The notes under the pieces: model-generated
Told to the model about the DNA's origin: nothing
The model's input: the letters and a program-made list of their open reading frames with translations, nothing else
Databases searched by the model: none
In this document: one piece after another, positions 11,783 to 21,528 of the stretch
Layout: the number at the start of each line of letters is the position of its first letter
Numbering within the stretch: the stretch's first letter is position 1
Program-made: the position numbers and the translations under genes
Virus record (IMG/VR): IMGVR_UViG_2526164668_000015
DNA from: a virus
Lineage: Duplodnaviria > Heunggongvirae > Uroviricota > Caudoviricetes
DNA length: 21,528 nucleotides
Direction: 5' to 3' (one strand)

Positions 11783-12742
11783 TTAAAAAAAGAAGGTGAT
11801 TGCTCCATTTATAAATGAATAGTCATCCCCTGTCTTGAATTCTGATGTTACTTTATTAAATGCTAGTGTGAAGGCTACAGGTGCATACCCAATTGTTGCG
11901 CCAACTTGATATTCATCAACAGTTTTGTTTAGCGATACTGTTGTTTGTTTCGTCTGTATTGTTTTTCCTTCGAGAGTATAGTTGCGATTGACATCTCGTC
12001 TTTCCATACCTGCAAAAATCTTGTATTTGAATCCGCTTGTATCGGACATATGCATTAAACCACGGGGAGCCAGCAGACCAAAGCCATTATCCGAATTGAA
12101 GGTTTTATCATTACCAATGGCAATGGTTGCGCCATATGCTACATATTGAAATAAGTTTCCAGTAACAGCAGAAACTTCAGGGTATAATCCAACATTAGCA
12201 CCTAAAATATCCATACTTGGTGTCATGGATAGCATCCCTTTTACAGTATAACCGTAGCGATTCTCTATTTGATCATCCCATGCATGATATTTTTCTGCCC
12301 CAATAATCTCATGAGCTTTATTTTGTACTTTCTGACCGCCTGCGTCGGGGCCAACAACACCTATGTCAGTACCTAATCGATAGCGAATCCAGTCATTCGC
12401 AAGGGAGTTCCATTCAATACCAGTGTGAGTGTATGCACTAAAAGCTCTGTCTCCAGTTACAGCTGTGTTGTGTCTTTTATTACTGCCTGATGGAGAGTAA
12501 ATATCTTGCGCAATATGGAGAGATAATTGGCTCGAGTCTGAGATATCGTGGCTATATCCCAGAAATAAGCCTTGTGAGTAATCATCTCTGTTTTCATGTT
12601 TATTGCCATAAATATCATTAAGTATTGGTTGAAACTTCCCTGCATCATCATTTGCTAATGATAATGCAAGGCTGTTCGCGATAGCTGAACACGTGGTAAA
12701 TGACAGAGCAATAAAGACGCCAGCGATGACACTTTTTTTCAT
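11783..12742 (-). CDS. outer-membrane beta-barrel protein; size and architecture compatible with an LpxR-type lipid A 3'-O-deacylase (unverified)
   Basis: 319-aa ORF with signal peptide MKKSVIAGVFIALSFTTCSAIA and C-terminal aromatic beta-signal ...INGAITFFF. It is AT-rich with a long AT-rich upstream region (12743-13130). The LpxR assignment rests only on length, OMP architecture and a recalled prophage-encoded LpxR in pathogenic E. coli. Confidence 0.8.
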   Translation of the reverse strand: MKKSVIAGVFIALSFTTCSAIANSLALSLANDDAGKFQPILNDIYGNKHENRDDYSQGLFLGYSHDISDSSQLSLHIAQDIYSPSGSNKRHNTAVTGDRAFSAYTHTGIEWNSLANDWIRYRLGTDIGVVGPDAGGQKVQNKAHEIIGAEKYHAWDDQIENRYGYTVKGMLSMTPSMDILGANVGLYPEVSAVTGNLFQYVAYGATIAIGNDKTFNSDNGFGLLAPRGLMHMSDTSGFKYKIFAGMERRDVNRNYTLEGKTIQTKQTTVSLNKTVDEYQVGATIGYAPVAFTLAFNKVTSEFKTGDDYSFINGAITFFF

Positions 12743-13216
12743 ATGTTATTGTCTTCCTTTTTTTTGAATGGTGCGCGTATTTTACATACATGAGTTTGTA
12801 ATACAAGGTGCGTAATCAATATGATGTTTTATAATTGCGTGAGACAATTGATTTATTCGTTTTTTATTGCGGTTTTTATTATCTTTTAATGTAACGGTGT
12901 TTTTATTAAGTGTGTTTGCGTGGTGTTTTATGTTTTTTATAATTTTTATTTTATTAAATTTAAATGCATTAGTAATGGCTATTCTATATAGCAATATAAG
13001 AACTGTTACAAAAAAAGGGGGGCAATTACAGGTAGTTATGGATGATGAGTGAAACAGATATTGGAGAACCGGGGAATGAATGATGTCTGAGTCTTATATA
13101 TCAGAACTCCTTCGCTGTCGCTGGGGGCTCCTGTGCTTATGTCGTTTCCCCGATTCGGTTTTGAACGATTACCGAATGTTGAAGAATTATGCCAAAATAT
13201 AGAAAGGATTTACTGC

Positions 13217-13906
13217 ATGAATACCCAATATTTACAGTATGTTCGTGAGCAACTTATGGCAGCTACTGCTGACTTGAACGGAGCAACGAAAGGCCAGCTC
13301 GAAGCCTGGCAGGAGCATGCACAATTTGATACTGGTACATACAAACGAAAGAAGCTGCGCATTCTGGATGTGGTAACTGGCAAGATGATTACGCTGGATA
13401 ATACGCCGACTTCCGGTAAGCAGTCGTACGCAAAAGGTTCATCCATTGCTTTGGTCAGCCCGGTTGAATTCTCAACCTCTTCATGGCGCCGCGCGGTTTT
13501 GTCTCTCGATGAACATCAGAAAGCATGGTTGCTTTGGTGTTACAGCGAAAGCGTTCGATGGGGGCATCAGGTCACCATAACGCAATGGGCATGGAGCGAG
13601 TTTAAAGATTTGTTAAGTAACAGAAAAATTGCAGGTAAGACACTGGATCGCCTGAAGACGTTAATCTGGCTGGCTGCACAGGATGTGAAGAGCGAACTTG
13701 CAGGGCGTGAGGCCTATGAATACCAGACACTGGCATCATTGGTGGGAGTGACAACAAAAAACTGGTCCGAGACATTTACTGAACGCTGGGTTGCAATGAA
13801 GCACATTTTTCTACAGCTTGATAGTGATGCTTTATTGCTTGTGACGAGAACACGTTCAAAACAAAAGGCAGCATTTTTACAGCAAAATATTGCAAAACTG
13901 GATTAA
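13217..13906 (+). CDS. putative late-gene antiterminator (Q-like, non-lambda family), 229 aa; alternative start at 13133
   Basis: ORF with an AAAGGA Shine-Dalgarno before ATG 13217. It sits where Q is expected, after the nin genes and the Q remnant, and is immediately followed by a sigma70 promoter plus short-transcript terminator. There is no recognisable similarity to lambda Q, so the assignment is by position and context only. Confidence 0.5.
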   Translation: MNTQYLQYVREQLMAATADLNGATKGQLEAWQEHAQFDTGTYKRKKLRILDVVTGKMITLDNTPTSGKQSYAKGSSIALVSPVEFSTSSWRRAVLSLDEHQKAWLLWCYSESVRWGHQVTITQWAWSEFKDLLSNRKIAGKTLDRLKTLIWLAAQDVKSELAGREAYEYQTLASLVGVTTKNWSETFTERWVAMKHIFLQLDSDALLLVTRTRSKQKAAFLQQNIAKLD

Positions 13907-14834: not shown

Positions 14835-15124
14835 TTGGCTGCATAAATAATATTTTAAGTTGCAAGTTGGCTATTCGTAGGAATAGAACCTTAGGCATGC
14901 TGAATGCGTTTTCTGAACATTGTTTTATAAACTGTGTCTGCTTGCTGTTGTGATCCTGCTTTTAGTGATGGTGATGATGGATTTCACCAGCAGGATAATG
15001 TTGGTACTGACTGATGGCGCTCTGGTCTGCGGCATTGTGGTATTGCTGTGGCCGATGATGAAAGAACAGGTGATGCTGCCAACTTACTGATTTAGTGTAT
15101 GATGGTGTTTTTTGAGGTGCTCCA

Positions 15125-15822: not shown

Positions 15823-16581
15823 GTTGGAGTCATTACCAGTACCTTGTAGCCTTTATTTGCAGGATATAAAGGTAAAAACTCGGTTAATAATGGGTCAGGA
15901 CCTTTAATAGTTGTAAACTTGAACAAAATGACGTTAATATTATTAACGTAGATGATATTATCAGAACAACCTTCTTGCCATCCATTTTATCGCATTCAAA
16001 CATTATAAATGTACTTAGTATTATTCATAAATGATATCAAGATGGCACCTTAACCTTCACCCAAACGACGTTAACCAAATAAAAGAAAGTTAAGATGCCA
16101 TCGAAATATCATTAATTGCTGCATATCCTTTATCATACAATAACAAATGTTCTCCTTATTGTTTTTTTGTGCATCCCTGCTTTTAATATTTACATGCAAT
16201 GGAAAAACAGTATATGGAGAGAACTTTTCCGCAAAACATTTTCATATCCTACGCTCCTGAAATATAACAGATCCACTCAGACATAAATCGCAAAAAATTC
16301 AAGGTTAACGTAAAATGTAAAAAACTTAGCGTAACTAATATTGGTTTACCTTCGTTACTGTAAATACGCCAACATAGCATAGATAATCAATGAGGTATAG
16401 TCTGTTTATGAGAATTAATTTATAAAAACAAGTGAATAACAATGGAGAATTAATCCTTGCAGCTTATGAGTTTGTGAAGCAATTGGGAAAGAAAAATATA
16501 AATGATGTGAAAAAAAATAATTATTCGTCTTACCAATGCACTCGAGACTACTGATCCTACCCACGTAATGTGGACACGGCC

Positions 16582-17435
16582 CTAAGCGAGATTATGGTTT
16601 TCAAATTGTTCCGGGCTGAGACCGCCACAGGCACTGTGACGACGCCAGCGATTGTAATCACACTCGATATAATTAAACACCGTTGCCCGCATTATTTCCC
16701 GGCTGCTAAAGCGTTCCCCGTGGATACATTCCACCTTCAGCGAATGAAAGAAGCTTTCCACACAGGCATTGTATAACAGTAGCCTTTCGCACTCATACTG
16801 CCACGCAGGTTGTGTCGCTTCAGCAGCGCCTGATAATCCCCTGAACAGTATTGACCACCACGGTCCGTATGAACAATGACGCTTTCCGGGCGTCTTCTCC
16901 GCCACAACGCCATTTGCAGTGCATCACAGGCCAGTTGTGCTGTCATTCGCGGTGACATCGACCAGCCAATAACGGCGCGTGACCACAGGTCGATGACTAC
17001 TGCGAGATACAACCAGCCCTCATCGGTACGCAAGTACGTGATGTCACCCGCCCACTTCTGGTTCGGGCCGCTGGCGCTGAAGTCCTGCTCCAGCAGATTC
17101 TCCAATACGGGCAGGCCATGTGCACGGTAGCTGACCGGGCTGAACTTCCGGCTGGCTTTCGCCCGCAGCCCCTGACGACGCAGGCTGGCGGCAATGGTTT
17201 TAATATTGAACTCCGGCAGTTCGTCAGCAAGGCGGGGAGCACCGTATCGCTGCTTTGCCTCAAAGAATGCCTTATGGACAGCGGCATCGCAGGTGAGCCG
17301 AAACTGTTGGCGCAGGCTCATCTGGTGACGACGCCTGAGCCAGACATACCAGCCGCTGCGGGCAACCCGAAGTACACGACACATCGCTTTGATGCTGAAC
17401 TCTGCCCGATGATTTTCGATGAAGACATACTTCAT
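16582..17435 (-). pseudogene. IS3-family transposase OrfB (InsF-like DDE) with an internal frameshift
   Basis: InsF-like sequence [30 protein letters not shown]...[30 protein letters not shown] runs to about 16775 and then stops ([14 protein letters not shown]-stop). The InsF C-terminus ([19 protein letters not shown]...[14 protein letters not shown]) continues in another frame at 16582-16773. This is consistent with a 1-nt deletion near TGTTATACAATGCC, where IS3 as recalled has TGTTATGACAATGCC. Confidence 0.8.
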
Positions 17436-17731
17436 TTCAGGCGCTTCGCGAAGTATGTCGCGGCCTTTTGGAGGATGGCCAGTTCCTCAGCCTGCTCCGC
17501 CAGTTGTCGTTTAAGGCGGACATTTTCAGCGGCCAGTTCGCTTTCGCGCTCTGACGAACTCATTTGTTGCTGCTGTTTACTGCGCCAGGCATAAAGCTGG
17601 GATTCATACAGGCTGAGTTCACGGGCTGCGGCGGCCACACCGATGCGTTCAGCGAGTTTCAGGGCTTCGTTACGAAATTCAGGCGTATGTTGTTTACGGG
17701 GCTTCTTGCTGATTGATACTGGTTTTGTCAT
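17432..17731 (-). CDS. IS3-family transposase OrfA (InsE-like, HTH)
   Basis: 99-aa [102 protein letters not shown]. Confidence 0.9.
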
Positions 17732-18049
17732 GAGTCACCTCTGGTTGAGAGTTTACTCACTTAGTCCTGTGTCCACTATTGGTGGGTAAGATCATAAATA
17801 CCCATTCAATACGCTGTATGGCCGCTGAAAGAACATTTTCTTCCGCTATGACTTTTTGTGTACCTCTCATACATAGCCCTGATAAAGCATTCTGATTTAA
17901 CTTTCTGTCAAATACGAGGCAACCAGTCCGTAATCAACCACACAACAAACCAGAACCCCATCATCAGAATCAAATACTCCATGATGACTGAAATACTTAT
18001 TTTCATATCATTACCGCACCCTGATAATATTCAGTACAGAATTATCCCA

Positions 18050-18847
18050 TTACTGATACTCAATACTCACTGGCAGGGACACATTCCAGCGTTCTGTTTT
18101 ATCTCCCCACAGATGTAATTCGCCGGTGTCAGCAATAGTCCGGGCACCATAAACACCTTCAATCTGGCGAAGAGCAGTATCGCTGAAATGGCTTACGCCT
18201 GTCTCTGAACTTACTGACATCGTCGGCAACCACCCCGGACCTTCACCATCAAACATTGACTGCAGTAATCCGGGAATCTGCTCTGTGTTCAGAACATGGG
18301 ACTTATCAGGCAGACCGTTTCCCCCTACATCATCATATATACTGGTATAAGTAACCTGACCGTTACTTACATGCCGCATAAGTCCTGCCGCCTGCATACG
18401 AAACGTAAAATGACCAATCCGATGGCTATCTTCCCCCGTAACAGGCAATGTAACATCTGCAACTCCTGGTGTGGCCCACACCAGAGAAAAATCCTCAATA
18501 CCTTTTCCGAATATAATTCGGGGAGCCAGCCCCTCACGTCCGGCAGGTGTGGTAAGAACTGTTTTTCCCAGTACAAGATTCATGGCAGGCAAAGAAACAG
18601 GAACCACCGTATCTCCACTACGTGAAACCGGAGAATGTTTGACATTCAGGTTTGACTTCCCTTCTCCTATCTTCCACACCCAGGGATTACGGGTACTGGT
18701 TACTGGACCGCCCAGTTTAAGTTCACCACTGAAATCCTGACCGGGTGTATTCCAGGCCAGAACACTGAATGGAAAAAAACAAACAATCAGAAATAACAAA
18801 ACAGAATTCTTCACATTTTTCTCCACTATTGTTTCCCTGCCATTCAT
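18050..18847 (-). CDS. secreted protein, paralog C of a three-member family (pilus/adhesin-like?)
   Basis: ATG at 18847 overlaps the stop of the upstream gene (ATGA). Signal peptide [31 protein letters not shown], motif [12 protein letters not shown] shared with the upstream paralogs, and a C-terminal beta-strand ...[11 protein letters not shown]. Confidence 0.7.
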
Positions 18848-19620
18848 TGCACAGTAACCGTAACATTCAGTTTTGCCTGCCACTGAGCAGGTGTCCCTTC
18901 TGCCGGAAGGTGTAATTCAAAATCAGACACAGAAGATGCATAAGCAGCGGCAAGATTTTTGACTCTGCCATCCGCAAGAATCCCCTGACTGATAACCTGC
19001 CCGTTATCCACTGCGCTCATTCCACCACCAAATTTCTGATTCATCAGCAACAATGAAGATAAACGGTTCTTCAGTTCTTGAGGTAAACTACCGGACTGAA
19101 CATTCGTCACACTCTGTCCACTAACCAGTGACATCCCCGCAGGTACCGATACGCCATCCTCCTGGACACCAGTACTGACAGCCATCCCCTGATCAAGGGT
19201 AAAATAAAGTTGCCCTGTCACCTGACCATTTTCAGGATCACTTACCGGGACAGAAGCACGAAAATGTTGTGCAGTGGCACTGTTTCCGTCTGTTACCGTA
19301 AAAGGCTGACCATTACTACTGAACGTGATAAAAGGCGTAAAACCAGGACCACCGCGCTCTGCCACTTCGAACAGATGCCCCTCAAGAAATGGTAATGAAC
19401 CTTTATCATGCAAATCAAAAATAAGCTGCCCATTCTCTGTTAGGGCATCAGCTGTATCCACGGCCCAAGTCTGTCCGGATGAACCTATCTGCCAAGTCCA
19501 TTTAGGTGCCTCATCAGTAACAAAACCATGAAACTGGATTTCACCACCATCAAGGCGCTCAGCATATAATTTCATTGAACATAAAAGAACACATCCAAAA
19601 AGAAAAAAGAATAACAACAA
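18844..19620 (-). CDS. secreted protein, paralog B
   Basis: ORF beginning with TTG at 19620 in the ORF track ([19 protein letters not shown]|ERLDGG...). It contains [13 protein letters not shown] and ends ...[10 protein letters not shown]. An ATG at 19634 in another frame upstream of a T-run suggests either a TTG start or a homopolymer indel in the signal-peptide region. Confidence 0.65.
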
Positions 19621-19686
19621 CGAACTAAATTCATGCTATTTACTCCTCATCCTTTAAAACAGAAGTCGGATGTATCGTTTTTGGAA

Positions 19687-19719
19687 TAACACTCTCACTA
19701 TAAAACAGTGAGAGTGTTA
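19687..19719. promoter_or_regulatory. perfect 13-bp stem-loop between paralog A and paralog B genes
   Basis: TAACACTCTCACT-ataaaac-AGTGAGAGTGTTA: 13-bp perfect inverted repeat with a 7-nt loop, in the 137-bp intergenic gap. No U-tract follows on the coding (minus) strand. Confidence 0.5.
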
Positions 19720-19758
19720 CAAATAATAAATGGTTTCTACTTATTTAAGTTCTGTGCA

Positions 19759-20622
19759 TTAATTGTATGCAACAGTAACATTAAGTGGAATTGACCAATT
19801 GGTTGTATGAGTGACTTTCTGTGTAAAGGTTAAATCAATTTTACTTCCGTTGACTAAACCGAACCCCATACCTGTAGCTGCAGTTGACATTTTTTCAATA
19901 TTAAATCTACTGTTCGCCTCATTTGGGGTTAAAGATTGCATCCATCCCTGATCAGCCCAGTTAGTAACTTGACCTACTCGTCCTTGGAGCTCAGAAACCA
20001 AATCAGACATTCCTAATTGGTTAAGAATATCTTCGGCTGTATCAATATCTGTAGCCTGGTGATTTCCACCAACAAGTCCCGCATATAACGAAGTAGAAAC
20101 ATTGTAATTATCAGAAACGACCAATTTAATACCAGTATCACCACTATCTGGAGTACCATACATCACACCTGCTACACGCGCATCTGTAATTTTTGCCGTA
20201 CCAACAGCTTGGCTATCAGCGTAAACTGGCACACTAAAATCAAACCCTCCATTGTTATTCCAGTTAGTACGAGAGATTTGAATACCATCACCACCACTAA
20301 CAACTACACTCGGCATAACACCTTTAGAATAACTATCAGCAGAATAAATCCCCTTAGTTTTTATAGCCAGAACAGGAATAGCTTCCTGAACAGGCAAAGA
20401 TAATTCGTTACCATTTACCAAGTCGGTACCATTATTAGCGAAATTAGTATAACCACTCCCTGTGGCAACCAGCCATACAGGAGTATCATCTACAGTAATT
20501 GTACCTCCAATAGAAACGGATCCTCCTGCAGAATTTTCCTCCCAAGCACCTAAACCAGCCATAGCAGAACCGGATACCGCAGTAGAGGCAACTACCGCAA
20601 GTGCAATCAACGTCTTTTTCAT
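19759..20622 (-). CDS. secreted protein, paralog A (candidate major structural subunit)
   Basis: 287-aa ORF with signal peptide MKKTLIALAVVASTAVSGSAMA, motif TPVWLVATGSG and C-terminal strand ...SIPLNVTVAYN. The mature protein has no Cys. It has its own AT-rich upstream region and is followed by a strong hairpin. Confidence 0.75.
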   Translation of the reverse strand: MKKTLIALAVVASTAVSGSAMAGLGAWEENSAGGSVSIGGTITVDDTPVWLVATGSGYTNFANNGTDLVNGNELSLPVQEAIPVLAIKTKGIYSADSYSKGVMPSVVVSGGDGIQISRTNWNNNGGFDFSVPVYADSQAVGTAKITDARVAGVMYGTPDSGDTGIKLVVSDNYNVSTSLYAGLVGGNHQATDIDTAEDILNQLGMSDLVSELQGRVGQVTNWADQGWMQSLTPNEANSRFNIEKMSTAATGMGFGLVNGSKIDLTFTQKVTHTTNWSIPLNVTVAYN

Positions 20623-20843
20623 AAGTTTAATTCCTTCCAGTATATATATTTTATATAGCTGGTAACCCCGTCACAGAATTACCGCAAACCCATCCCTGAA
20701 CAATATATATAAATGTTGCCACATGTATGAATAGTGCAAAACAGAATGGGTTTACGTTATTCCCGTAAAAGCCAACCCTTTACCGCGAAATTATTCAGCG
20801 GACTTCAGTGAATTTATAAAACACAGAATGCAAATACTGATTT

Positions 20844-21335
20844 TTAATTAACGCCCTCCACCTGTAATGCAATCTGAATATTTCCGCGATAATTCACGGG
20901 AATTTCCAGGTCAGCCGGCACATCTGAACGTAACTCAACCTGTTTTTGTGCGTCCGGCACCGTTATCAGAACATCCTCGCCCTGCTGACTGGCATTCAGT
21001 ACAGCCTTTTGCCCATCCACCACCAGGGACGTTTTCAGGGTGATTCTGGCTTCCTGGTTATCCGGTAATACCTGCTTTACTGTGATATAAGCCATACCAC
21101 CGGATGCCGGACGGACTTCTGCATCACGAACCCGTAACTGTACCGGCAATGCATCATCACTCCGGTACAGTACCGGGTCAGTGGGGGTCCGGGTGACTTT
21201 CACCACGCTGTTCCCCACCACCTGACCATTCACCACCCCCAGATATTGCGTTTTCTCACTGTATTCATTTGCATGAACCCCCTGAAAACCGAATGCAGTA
21301 AACAGCAGGCCAGCTATCATCATTTTCTTTTTCAT
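20844..21335 (-). CDS. secreted 163-aa protein of unknown function
   Basis: Signal peptide MKKKMMIAGLLFTAFGFQGVHA|NEYSEK. It lies 45 nt downstream of a partial upstream gene on the same strand. Confidence 0.7.
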   Translation of the reverse strand: MKKKMMIAGLLFTAFGFQGVHANEYSEKTQYLGVVNGQVVGNSVVKVTRTPTDPVLYRSDDALPVQLRVRDAEVRPASGGMAYITVKQVLPDNQEARITLKTSLVVDGQKAVLNASQQGEDVLITVPDAQKQVELRSDVPADLEIPVNYRGNIQIALQVEGVN

Positions 21336-21377
21336 TTAACTCCCCTTCTGTTCTGTACTCCGGTACGGCGGGATTGA

Positions 21378-21528
21378 TTACGCTGCACTTTTCTGAGGTT
21401 GGACATTTTCATCAACGTTCGTCCCTGCCGTGGATTTCTTCTGATTAATCGTCCAGGTTTTCAGGTCACCATAATCATCCAGGGATTCCACTTTCACCAC
21501 ATTTCCCTTCACCTGCACTTCATCTCCT
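21378..21528 (-). CDS. 3' end of an upstream gene of the same operon (5' portion outside the window)
   Basis: Open frame on the minus strand running off the window edge, ending ...GDEVQVKGNVVKVESLDDYGDLKTWTINQKKSTAGTNVDENVQPQKSAA with stop at 21380-21378. Confidence 0.5.
   Translation of the reverse strand, partial: GDEVQVKGNVVKVESLDDYGDLKTWTINQKKSTAGTNVDENVQPQKSAA

Follow-up and report, generated by a model that had tools for sequence, protein, structure and literature searches.

The DNA analysed here, called the window below, is a stretch of 21,528 nucleotides, and the section of interest, positions 18050-21528, is found at its far end. Five minus-strand reading frames were confirmed in this section. 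They are listed below in the order of transcription together with two non-coding features, under the gene names of the K88 (F4) fimbrial operon.

21379..21528, minus strand: 3' end of the chaperone gene faeE, the last 49 codons and the stop codon (GDEVQVKGNVV...QPQKSAA*), running off the end of the window
20844..21335, minus strand: faeF-like gene of a minor fimbrial subunit, 163 residues (DUF5462), with the signal peptide MKKKMMIAGLLFTAFGFQGVHA
20623..20843, minus strand: conserved faeF-faeG intergenic leader, 221 nt, with a GGAAGGA Shine-Dalgarno sequence at its end, before the faeG ATG
19759..20622, minus strand: faeG-like gene of the major subunit and presumed adhesin (PF02432), 287 residues (265 in the mature protein, no Cys)
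19686..19720, minus strand: perfect 16 bp stem-loop 3' of faeG (-22 kcal/mol, z = -8.6), with no U-tract
18844..19634, minus strand: faeH, minor subunit (PF02432), with a conserved native ATG at 19634 and a GAGGAG Shine-Dalgarno sequence
18050..18814, minus strand: faeI-like gene of a minor subunit, 254 residues (PF02432), with a GTG start at 18814, GGAG 6 nt upstream and a signal peptide

The three consecutive genes of the faeG, faeH and faeI type encode proteins of 254-287 amino acid residues, all of which belong to the Pfam family PF02432 (Fimbrial_K88). The E-values are 1.5e-28, 3.7e-74 and 2.7e-69, respectively, and the corresponding bit scores of 100, 250 and 234 are each far above the cut-off of 26.2 bits, so that the proteins are true paralogs, as the preliminary description of this locus had proposed. 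Pairwise identity among them is only about 20-24%, with BLASTP E-values of 4e-4 to 0.02. The faeF-like protein matches DUF5462 with 213.6 bits (cut-off 25; E 1.2e-63). A search of NCBIfam with the four subunit proteins gave zero matches, and the Pfam matches were decisive instead. The lack of a conserved disulfide in the mature proteins, also noted in the preliminary description, extends to a complete absence of Cys in the mature F, G, H and I proteins. It is a trait of the K88 family, since K88 FaeG is likewise without Cys; the FaeC-like tip subunit has two.

The preliminary description had seen no chaperone in the window, which is incorrect, and had placed a secreted protein of 163 residues and the tail of another gene upstream of the paralogs, which are the FaeF homologue and the C-terminus of FaeE. 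The 49 residues of this FaeE tail are 100% identical to FaeE of plasmid NZ_CP010120 and, over 28 residues, 86% identical to K88 FaeE. The full-length FaeE of the plasmid matches PapD_N with an E-value of 2.1e-30. Upstream of the shared stretch, NZ_CP010120 carries faeE, the faeD usher gene, a gene of a faeC-like tip subunit and regulators. Its FaeD matches the Usher family (1.4e-92) as well as PapC_N; the window breaks off within faeE, and the usher and the tip subunit are seen in the public copies and not in the window. In this otherwise identical plasmid the E, D and C proteins are 91%, 85% and 80% identical to those of K88, respectively. Ten contigs encode the exact major subunit, and all ten have the same complete operon of an AraC-type regulator, K88_fimbrial_pA (FaeC-like), usher (PapC_N/Usher/PapC_C), chaperone (PapD_N), DUF5462 and three Fimbrial_K88 genes. 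The chaperone and usher that had been suggested as objects of a search beyond position 21528 are therefore present there in the public copies, together with a tip subunit. The FaeF-like protein itself is 71.6% identical to K88 FaeF over 162 residues.

The best match of each window gene is the K88 gene at the same operon position. Because Pfam places every gene and the gene order is that of faeE-F-G-H-I of K88, the section 18050-21528 can be assigned to the kappa-class, K88/F4-type fimbriae; it is almost certainly the promoter-distal half of a plasmid-type chaperone-usher operon of the K88 (F4) family, faeE'-faeF-faeG-faeH-faeI. Operons of the kappa class have a single major adhesin gene in mid-operon (PMC12050912), and the roles of the K88 operon genes have been described (PMC3174951). 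Nothing that was found contradicts membership in the K88 family.

The major subunit matches the sequence of the FaeG crystal structure 2j6r over its full length (E 5.6e-16). An AF2 model of this protein was obtained with a pLDDT of 90.2 and a pTM of 0.85, and comparison of the model with the PDB by Foldseek, a check proposed in the preliminary description, gave FaeG structures only: the top 18 matches are all FaeG (E 4e-17 to 5e-14, TM 0.64-0.83), among them FaeE-FaeG chaperone complexes and donor-strand-complemented FaeG, while the match that follows this set has an E-value of 0.03 and a TM of 0.19. The modelled major subunit has the fold of FaeG, in which a subdomain is inserted into an incomplete Ig-like core. 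In the PDB sequence search FaeH had no match and FaeI had a marginal match only. The identity of these two proteins is settled by their Pfam scores and by the 62-76% identity to FaeI and FaeH of K88.

The faeH gene carries a deletion of one nucleotide in the T-run 19602-19608, which is T6 in the window, whereas each of the 11 public copies examined has T7. This T6 takes the conserved ATG 19634 out of the reading frame. A signal peptide, which had been described for all three paralogs, is therefore doubtful for the second gene in the window. The frame that is in phase in the window begins at TTG 19620 and has 258 codons. With T7 the product has 263 residues, the mature part beginning with ERLDGG..., and aligns with the 263-residue FaeH of the DEC9B locus; the identity to K88 FaeH is 76%. 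For faeI the start is most likely GTG 18814, giving 254 residues and not the 277 of the longest frame, and the size range of 260-290 residues given earlier for the paralogs does not hold for this third gene. The FaeI-like protein is 62% identical to K88 FaeI over all 254 residues, with equal length, and 254 residues is also the length in the public annotation. A 32-residue ORF downstream of faeI has no match in Pfam or NCBIfam.

The first paralog had been described as a major subunit with its own upstream region and a strong hairpin behind it, and all three statements are supported by the present comparison. The 221-nt leader is near-identical among loci that have no more than 31-60% identity in FaeG, has conserved blocks in common with K88 and is predicted to be structured (z = -3.6). 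An independent promoter, however, is not supported by the scan, in which promoter-like sites numbered 4, compared with 7.7 in shuffled sequence. The sole site of this kind within the leader is a weak 9/12 match at 20731..20702, which is at chance level. A scan for terminators around faeG found nothing, and the stem-loop fails the pattern of an intrinsic terminator. The DEC9B, F41-type and K88 operons each have a stable stem-loop at this point as well, which in the F41-type and K88 operons is unrelated in sequence. The stem-loop after faeG probably increases the amount of major relative to minor subunit, by partial termination or by stabilisation of the mRNA.

It is useful to compare the locus with K88 (F4) of porcine ETEC, the faeA-J operon with pUMNK88_K88 (NC_017639) as prototype. 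The gene order C-D-E-F-G-H-I and the Pfam families are the same in both, FaeC, D, E, F, H and I are 62-91% identical, and the FaeG fold is shared. The two systems also have in common the cysteine-free subunits, the N-terminal donor-strand motif, the conserved C-terminal strand, the stem-loop after the major-subunit gene, and a plasmid-borne, IS1-flanked locus. However, K88 proper, with its serotypes ab, ac and ad, was ruled out: the major subunit is only 29.7% identical to K88 FaeG, there is no faeJ homologue, and beside the faeC-like gene lies a divergent regulator of AraC/GyrI-like type, with a PapB-like ORF further upstream, in place of the compact faeA/faeB of K88. The hosts are also different, cattle here and pigs for K88.

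Two other plasmid loci come nearest to that of the window. The first, on pDEC9B-1 (NZ_CP074761), is 86% identical in nucleotide sequence along the full 3.5 kb and has the nearest relative of the major subunit. The counterparts of FaeF, H and I are 96%, 93% and 89% identical, respectively, and the intergenic leader and the hairpin are shared. This operon also ends at gene I without faeJ, has the same AraC-type regulator and encodes an identical FaeC-like protein (WP_061316188). Its major subunit, in contrast, is only 59.7% identical. The pDEC9B-1 locus is probably Lda (locus for diffuse adherence, ldaA-I) of atypical EPEC O26:H11, since its 161-kb plasmid with hlyCABD and AIDA-I matches the plasmids of O26:H11 described as 'hlyA, AidAI, lda' (PMC5592225). 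The second, the F41-type locus of pF2_407_2_2-1 (NZ_CP074757, major subunit annotated 'F41 fimbrial protein'), has 91% nucleotide identity outside the major-subunit gene, counterparts of FaeF, H and I with 96%, 83% and 90% identity, and the same regulator and faeC-like gene. The difference is in the major subunit, which appears as a replaced cassette with breakpoints in the region coding for the signal peptide and after the stop codon; the hairpin that follows it has another sequence. Assignment of the window locus to F41 fimbriae was ruled out, its major subunit and the one annotated as F41 being 30.6% identical. Minor subunits that are 83-96% identical across these loci, against 31-60% for the major subunit, show that the major subunit has been exchanged within a conserved scaffold. 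The kappa chaperone-usher class also includes F4(O169)/Fay of human ETEC, Klf of the Salmonella Infantis plasmid pESI, and Ral (PMC12050912), which share its Pfam family and whose major subunits are only distantly related.

The N-proximal motif that had been noticed in the three paralogs contains a W; both it and the W...V strand at the C-terminus stay in register when the paralogs are aligned with one another and with FaeG, FaeH and FaeI of K88. The invariant positions of this alignment are G34, G40, W50, W276 and V282. The monomer model shows the first 27 residues of the mature major subunit without secondary structure, and the donor-strand-complemented constructs in the PDB align only from query residue 50. 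By analogy with the K88 family, the donor strand would be the N-terminal extension with its alternating hydrophobic residues, and the C-terminal strand would belong to the acceptor side. Strand complementation, as anticipated in the preliminary description, is thus retained, and the role of donor assigned there to the C-terminal strand is not.

The assembly mechanism of the window locus can be proposed by orthology with the K88 system. The subunits would be exported by Sec and captured in the periplasm by the chaperone FaeE, which would lend a β-strand beside the C-terminal strand of the subunit and so complete its incomplete Ig-like fold. The subunit would then be handed to the outer-membrane usher FaeD, where the N-terminal extension of the incoming subunit is expected to displace the chaperone strand by donor-strand exchange. 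In the window the putative extensions are GGSVSIGGTITV and those of the H and I proteins. The product would be a thin fibre in which the FaeG-like major subunit predominates; in the K88 family this subunit doubles as the adhesin. The low-copy subunits of the shaft and of biogenesis might be FaeF and FaeH, with FaeI as an accessory paralog.

The preliminary description had proposed a pilus or adhesin operon, which is confirmed by Pfam and by synteny with K88, and had regarded it as non-canonical, without a classical chaperone and usher and outside any known family. Three observations speak for this second proposal. No chaperone or usher gene is complete within the window, the subunits have no disulfide of the kind found in type 1 and P pilins, and the paralogs are too diverged for convincing BLASTP links. 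Cysteine-free and strongly diverged pilin paralogs in a partial view of an operon look novel by eye, and a single Pfam search resolves the matter. The proposal is nevertheless hardly tenable: the last 150 nt of the window encode the C-terminus of the FaeE chaperone, every otherwise identical copy that was inspected has the usher and the full chaperone immediately upstream, all genes fall into Pfam families of the K88 operon, and both the modelled fold and the absence of cysteine are those of FaeG. An equally improbable reading makes the proteins soluble, non-polymerising periplasmic or stress proteins. The signal peptides speak for it and nothing else; no periplasmic-binding or stress family was matched in Pfam or NCBIfam, and all matches of sequence and structure are to fimbrial subunits. 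Homology to a well-characterised family other than pili had been named as an argument against a pilus; the well-characterised family that was matched is one of pilus proteins. Classical pilins of the gamma/pi type (type 1 and P pili) were ruled out as well, in view of the mature proteins without Cys, the lack of a PF00419 (Fimbrial) match, and FimA and SafA structures appearing only at E > 0.1.

A further reading accepts the K88-family operon and takes the window copy as its decaying, non-functional remnant, marked by the faeH frameshift, the IS elements and a relocation beside a prophage. It is unlikely, though far less so than the two readings above. Among 12 copies the faeH deletion is found only in the window. 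Past a conserved spacer of 254 bp the locus is followed by an IS3-family element, whose orfB reading frame has only 232 codons and looks truncated. IS1 also lies downstream, and it is at the IS1 end that a lambdoid prophage joins the locus. The prophage-IS1-fae junction was absent from the complete E. coli genomes searched, which means that the source contig could be rearranged or chimeric; an exact junction search of the GTDB representative genomes, which is weakly informative with one genome per species, gave no match. On the other hand, faeF, faeG and faeI are intact in the window and 100% identical to the plasmid copies, and the same IS3 and IS1 elements border intact plasmid copies, so that they are not specific to the window. 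The difference of a single base in a homopolymer may be a sequencing error, and K88 fimbriae could still be purified from a mutant with a stop codon in FaeH (PMC3174951). The function of the window copy is uncertain, its native faeH start being frameshifted, and the assignment of the locus to the K88 family applies in either case.

Five complete E. coli plasmids, NZ_CP010120 among them, differ from the section 18050-21528 by one indel of 1 base. Four of the five have a cattle or farm source and none is recorded for the other; their matching genes are annotated as faeE, DUF5462, faeH, and fimbrial or F4 family subunit. The carriers of the major subunit are IncF plasmids of cattle-associated E. 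coli, and the exact sequence occurs in 251 blocks of the public collection (protein index). A literature search for this variant or for the matching plasmid accessions found no relevant publication. For a divergent allele of the major subunit in a conserved scaffold, its own antigenic type and receptor specificity would be expected. It may be tentatively suggested, at somewhat less than even chances, that the 287-residue protein defines a kappa-class fimbria of a new type, in antigenicity as well as in receptor specificity, and that it could act as an unnamed bovine colonisation factor made by a swap of the major-subunit cassette in the Lda/F41 scaffold.

Textbooks already cover the K88-family fimbriae, from the assembly pathway and the fold to the logic of the operon, and the locus carries little weight for basic biology. 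Its value is modest, epidemiological and applied: it illustrates the cassette-like exchange of an adhesin gene, and the variant, widespread and unnamed on plasmids of cattle E. coli, is a candidate colonisation factor and a candidate antigen for typing or vaccines. FaeG-like proteins of Salmonella plasmids are 28.6% identical to this major subunit.

The fimbrial locus at positions 18050-21528 is a canonical, already annotated chaperone-usher operon of the K88/F4 family. It contains five reading frames on the minus strand:

21379-21528, minus strand: 3' end of faeE, a gene running off the window; its final 49 codons match the plasmid FaeE at 100% identity
20844-21335, minus strand: 163-aa faeF-like reading frame; Pfam DUF5462, E 1.2e-63
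19759-20622, minus strand: 287-aa faeG-like reading frame, the first paralog and major subunit; PF02432, E 1.5e-28
18844-19620, minus strand: 258-aa reading frame with a TTG start, the second paralog, faeH; PF02432, E 3.7e-74
ending at 18050, minus strand: the third paralog, faeI, of 277 aa in its longest form (GTG at 18883) or 254 aa (GTG at 18814); PF02432, E 2.7e-69

A single Pfam scan is enough to assign all the subunit proteins. All three paralogs match PF02432, which Pfam names "Fimbrial, major and minor subunit" of K88. The preliminary description was largely correct in its observations but wrong in reading them as a non-canonical system that could not be placed in a known family. An alignment of all three paralogs and related sequences bears out the motifs reported there: the N-proximal W and the C-terminal W...V strand do not vary. 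The mature proteins do lack the disulfide of classical pilins, having no cysteine at all, but this is a trait of the family rather than a departure from it, because K88 FaeG is also free of cysteine. The "tail of another gene", beside which no chaperone had been seen, is itself the C-terminus of the FaeE chaperone.

One indel is all that separates the whole 3.5-kb stretch from its counterparts in five complete E. coli plasmids (NZ_CP010120, NZ_CP010241, CP057474, NZ_CP128583 and NZ_AP042702). Four of these come from a cow, pooled cattle faeces, bovine faeces or a farm environment, and no host is recorded for NZ_CP010120. Across the plasmid records the genes are annotated as faeE, DUF5462, hypothetical protein or F4 family fimbrial subunit, faeH and fimbrial subunit. 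In NZ_CP010120 the operon extends upstream past the end of the window: the remainder of faeE is joined by the usher gene faeD, by a gene for a FaeC-like subunit of 168 aa and by a divergent regulator of AraC/GyrI-like type. The same complete architecture is present in all ten contigs encoding the exact 287-aa protein, most of them with a PapB-like reading frame further upstream; the index of the public collection has this protein in 251 blocks. One draft contig (GCA_039864785.1; L006:16659-20864) carries the locus at a distance of about 4 kb from genes for type VI secretion (PAAR, VgrG-like, TssG and TssF), which suggests that it occurs in other genomic contexts too.

Every protein has an orthologue in the K88 prototype, for which pUMNK88_K88 served as the reference. 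The identities are 72% for FaeF, 76% for FaeH and 62% for FaeI (254 aa in both), and 91%, 85% and 80% for full-length FaeE, FaeD and FaeC taken from the plasmid copy. The identity of the major subunit is 30%. The locus ends without faeJ and is followed by a small conserved reading frame, an IS3-family element and IS1; the J gene is likewise absent from lda, where the gene set is A-I (PMC10657854).

The uncharacterised variant of the major subunit is the sole unexplored element of the operon, and a literature search found no publication on it. Its nearest relatives in a protein search are "hypothetical" or "F4 family fimbrial subunit" entries with 47-58% identity, the remaining matches being at about 30% or lower. 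In a search of PDB sequences the protein matches FaeG over its full length (E 5.6e-16). An AlphaFold2 model built with 72 homologues as input (pLDDT 90.2) was used in the structure search that had been suggested, and this predicted fold retrieved FaeG structures alone from the PDB. The top 18 matches (E 4e-17 to 5e-14, TM 0.64-0.83) include FaeE-FaeG complexes and donor-strand-complemented FaeG, and the next match drops to E 0.03 and TM 0.19.

Two further plasmid loci have the scaffold in common with the window. The pDEC9B-1 locus (NZ_CP074761) has 86% nucleotide identity; at the protein level the identity is 96% for F, 93% for H and 89% for I, and only 60% for the major subunit. The F41-type locus of pF2_407_2_2-1 (NZ_CP074757) has 91% nucleotide identity outside the major-subunit gene, with F, H and I proteins at 96%, 83% and 90%, and a major subunit at only 31%. 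The faeF-faeG leader and the region coding for the signal peptide are nearly identical in all three loci. Given the divergent major subunits, the major-subunit gene has thus been swapped as a cassette within a shared scaffold. The 161-kb pDEC9B-1 also carries hlyCABD, the AIDA-I autotransporter with its heptosyltransferase, and OmpP, along with the K88-like locus (L003; wider region L015, NZ_CP074761 95000-136000). Plasmids with "hlyA, AidAI, lda" have been described in O26:H11 strains (PMC5592225). The K88-like locus of pDEC9B-1 is thus probably lda, judged from plasmid gene content.

In K88, FaeG serves as both major subunit and adhesin, with FaeC at the tip, FaeD as usher and FaeE as chaperone; the shaft has FaeF and FaeH as minor subunits, and no role has been defined for FaeI or FaeJ (PMC3174951). 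The next subunit displaces the chaperone strand with its own N-terminal strand (PMC3411772). By homology, the same roles and donor-strand exchange would apply to the present locus. Three features fit an N-terminal donor strand. The alignment with N-terminally deleted, donor-strand-complemented engineered PDB chains begins only at query residue 50, the first 27 mature residues of the major subunit are predicted to be unstructured in the monomer model, and an alternating-hydrophobic segment directly precedes the N-proximal W motif in all three paralogs. The C-terminal strand, proposed earlier as the donor, would on this N-terminal evidence be an acceptor-side strand instead.

The strong hairpin noted after the first paralog is a perfect 16-bp stem-loop (19686-19720; -22 kcal/mol, z = -8.6). 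It has no U-tract and was not called in a terminator scan. A stable stem-loop directly follows the major-subunit gene in all four K88-family operons compared: the one in the window, that of pDEC9B-1 (L003:7600-7716) and two others (L002:5690-5803 and L004:7287-7430). The stem-loop sequences of the F41-type and K88 loci are unrelated, so that the architecture is conserved and the sequence is not. This position suggests that the stem-loop has a conserved function, namely to set how much major subunit is made relative to the minor ones. The conserved 221-nt faeF-faeG leader (20623-20843) is predicted to form structure (z = -3.6). It hardly differs between loci with major subunits of only 31-60% identity, and blocks of it are conserved in K88 as well. 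A promoter scan of the leader gave a promoter-like site at chance level only, and the first paralog is not shown to have a promoter of its own.

At the 5' end of faeH (minus strand), the run of Ts at 19602-19608 has six bases (T6) in the window, whereas every one of the 11 public copies checked has T7. When the run is T7, translation from the conserved ATG at 19634, which follows the Shine-Dalgarno sequence GAGGAG, yields a FaeH of 263 aa that includes a signal peptide. With T6, the frame from this ATG reaches a stop after 20 codons, and the sole in-phase start is a TTG without a ribosome-binding site. The T6 run reflects either an error in sequencing a homopolymer or a genuine frameshift lesion.

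On the downstream side the following features are found:

about 16500-17795, minus strand: IS3-family element directly downstream of the fimbrial locus, also in the plasmid copies
1-15068: lambdoid prophage beyond the IS1 end, with bet/exo, rexA and replication genes
13133-13906: Q antiterminator, in the prophage part
11783-12742: LpxR, in the prophage part

The orfA of the IS3-family element (17432-17731) is intact, and orfB looks truncated or frameshifted (232-aa rve fragment, 16737-17435). Identity to the fae plasmids ends exactly at the IS1 terminal repeat, at 15069. Among the complete E. coli genomes in RefSeq, none crosses the prophage-IS1-fae junction, so it arose either by rearrangement through IS1 or as a chimera of the assembly. 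A very hydrophobic 32-aa reading frame (MKISISVIMEYLILMMGFWFVVWLITDWLPRI; 17908-18006, minus strand) lies 44 bp 3' of faeI. It has no Pfam or NCBIfam match, and in the DEC9B and F41-type loci a single residue is changed. The 257 bp at 17796-18052 are about 97% identical across the three loci and are conserved better than the fae genes.
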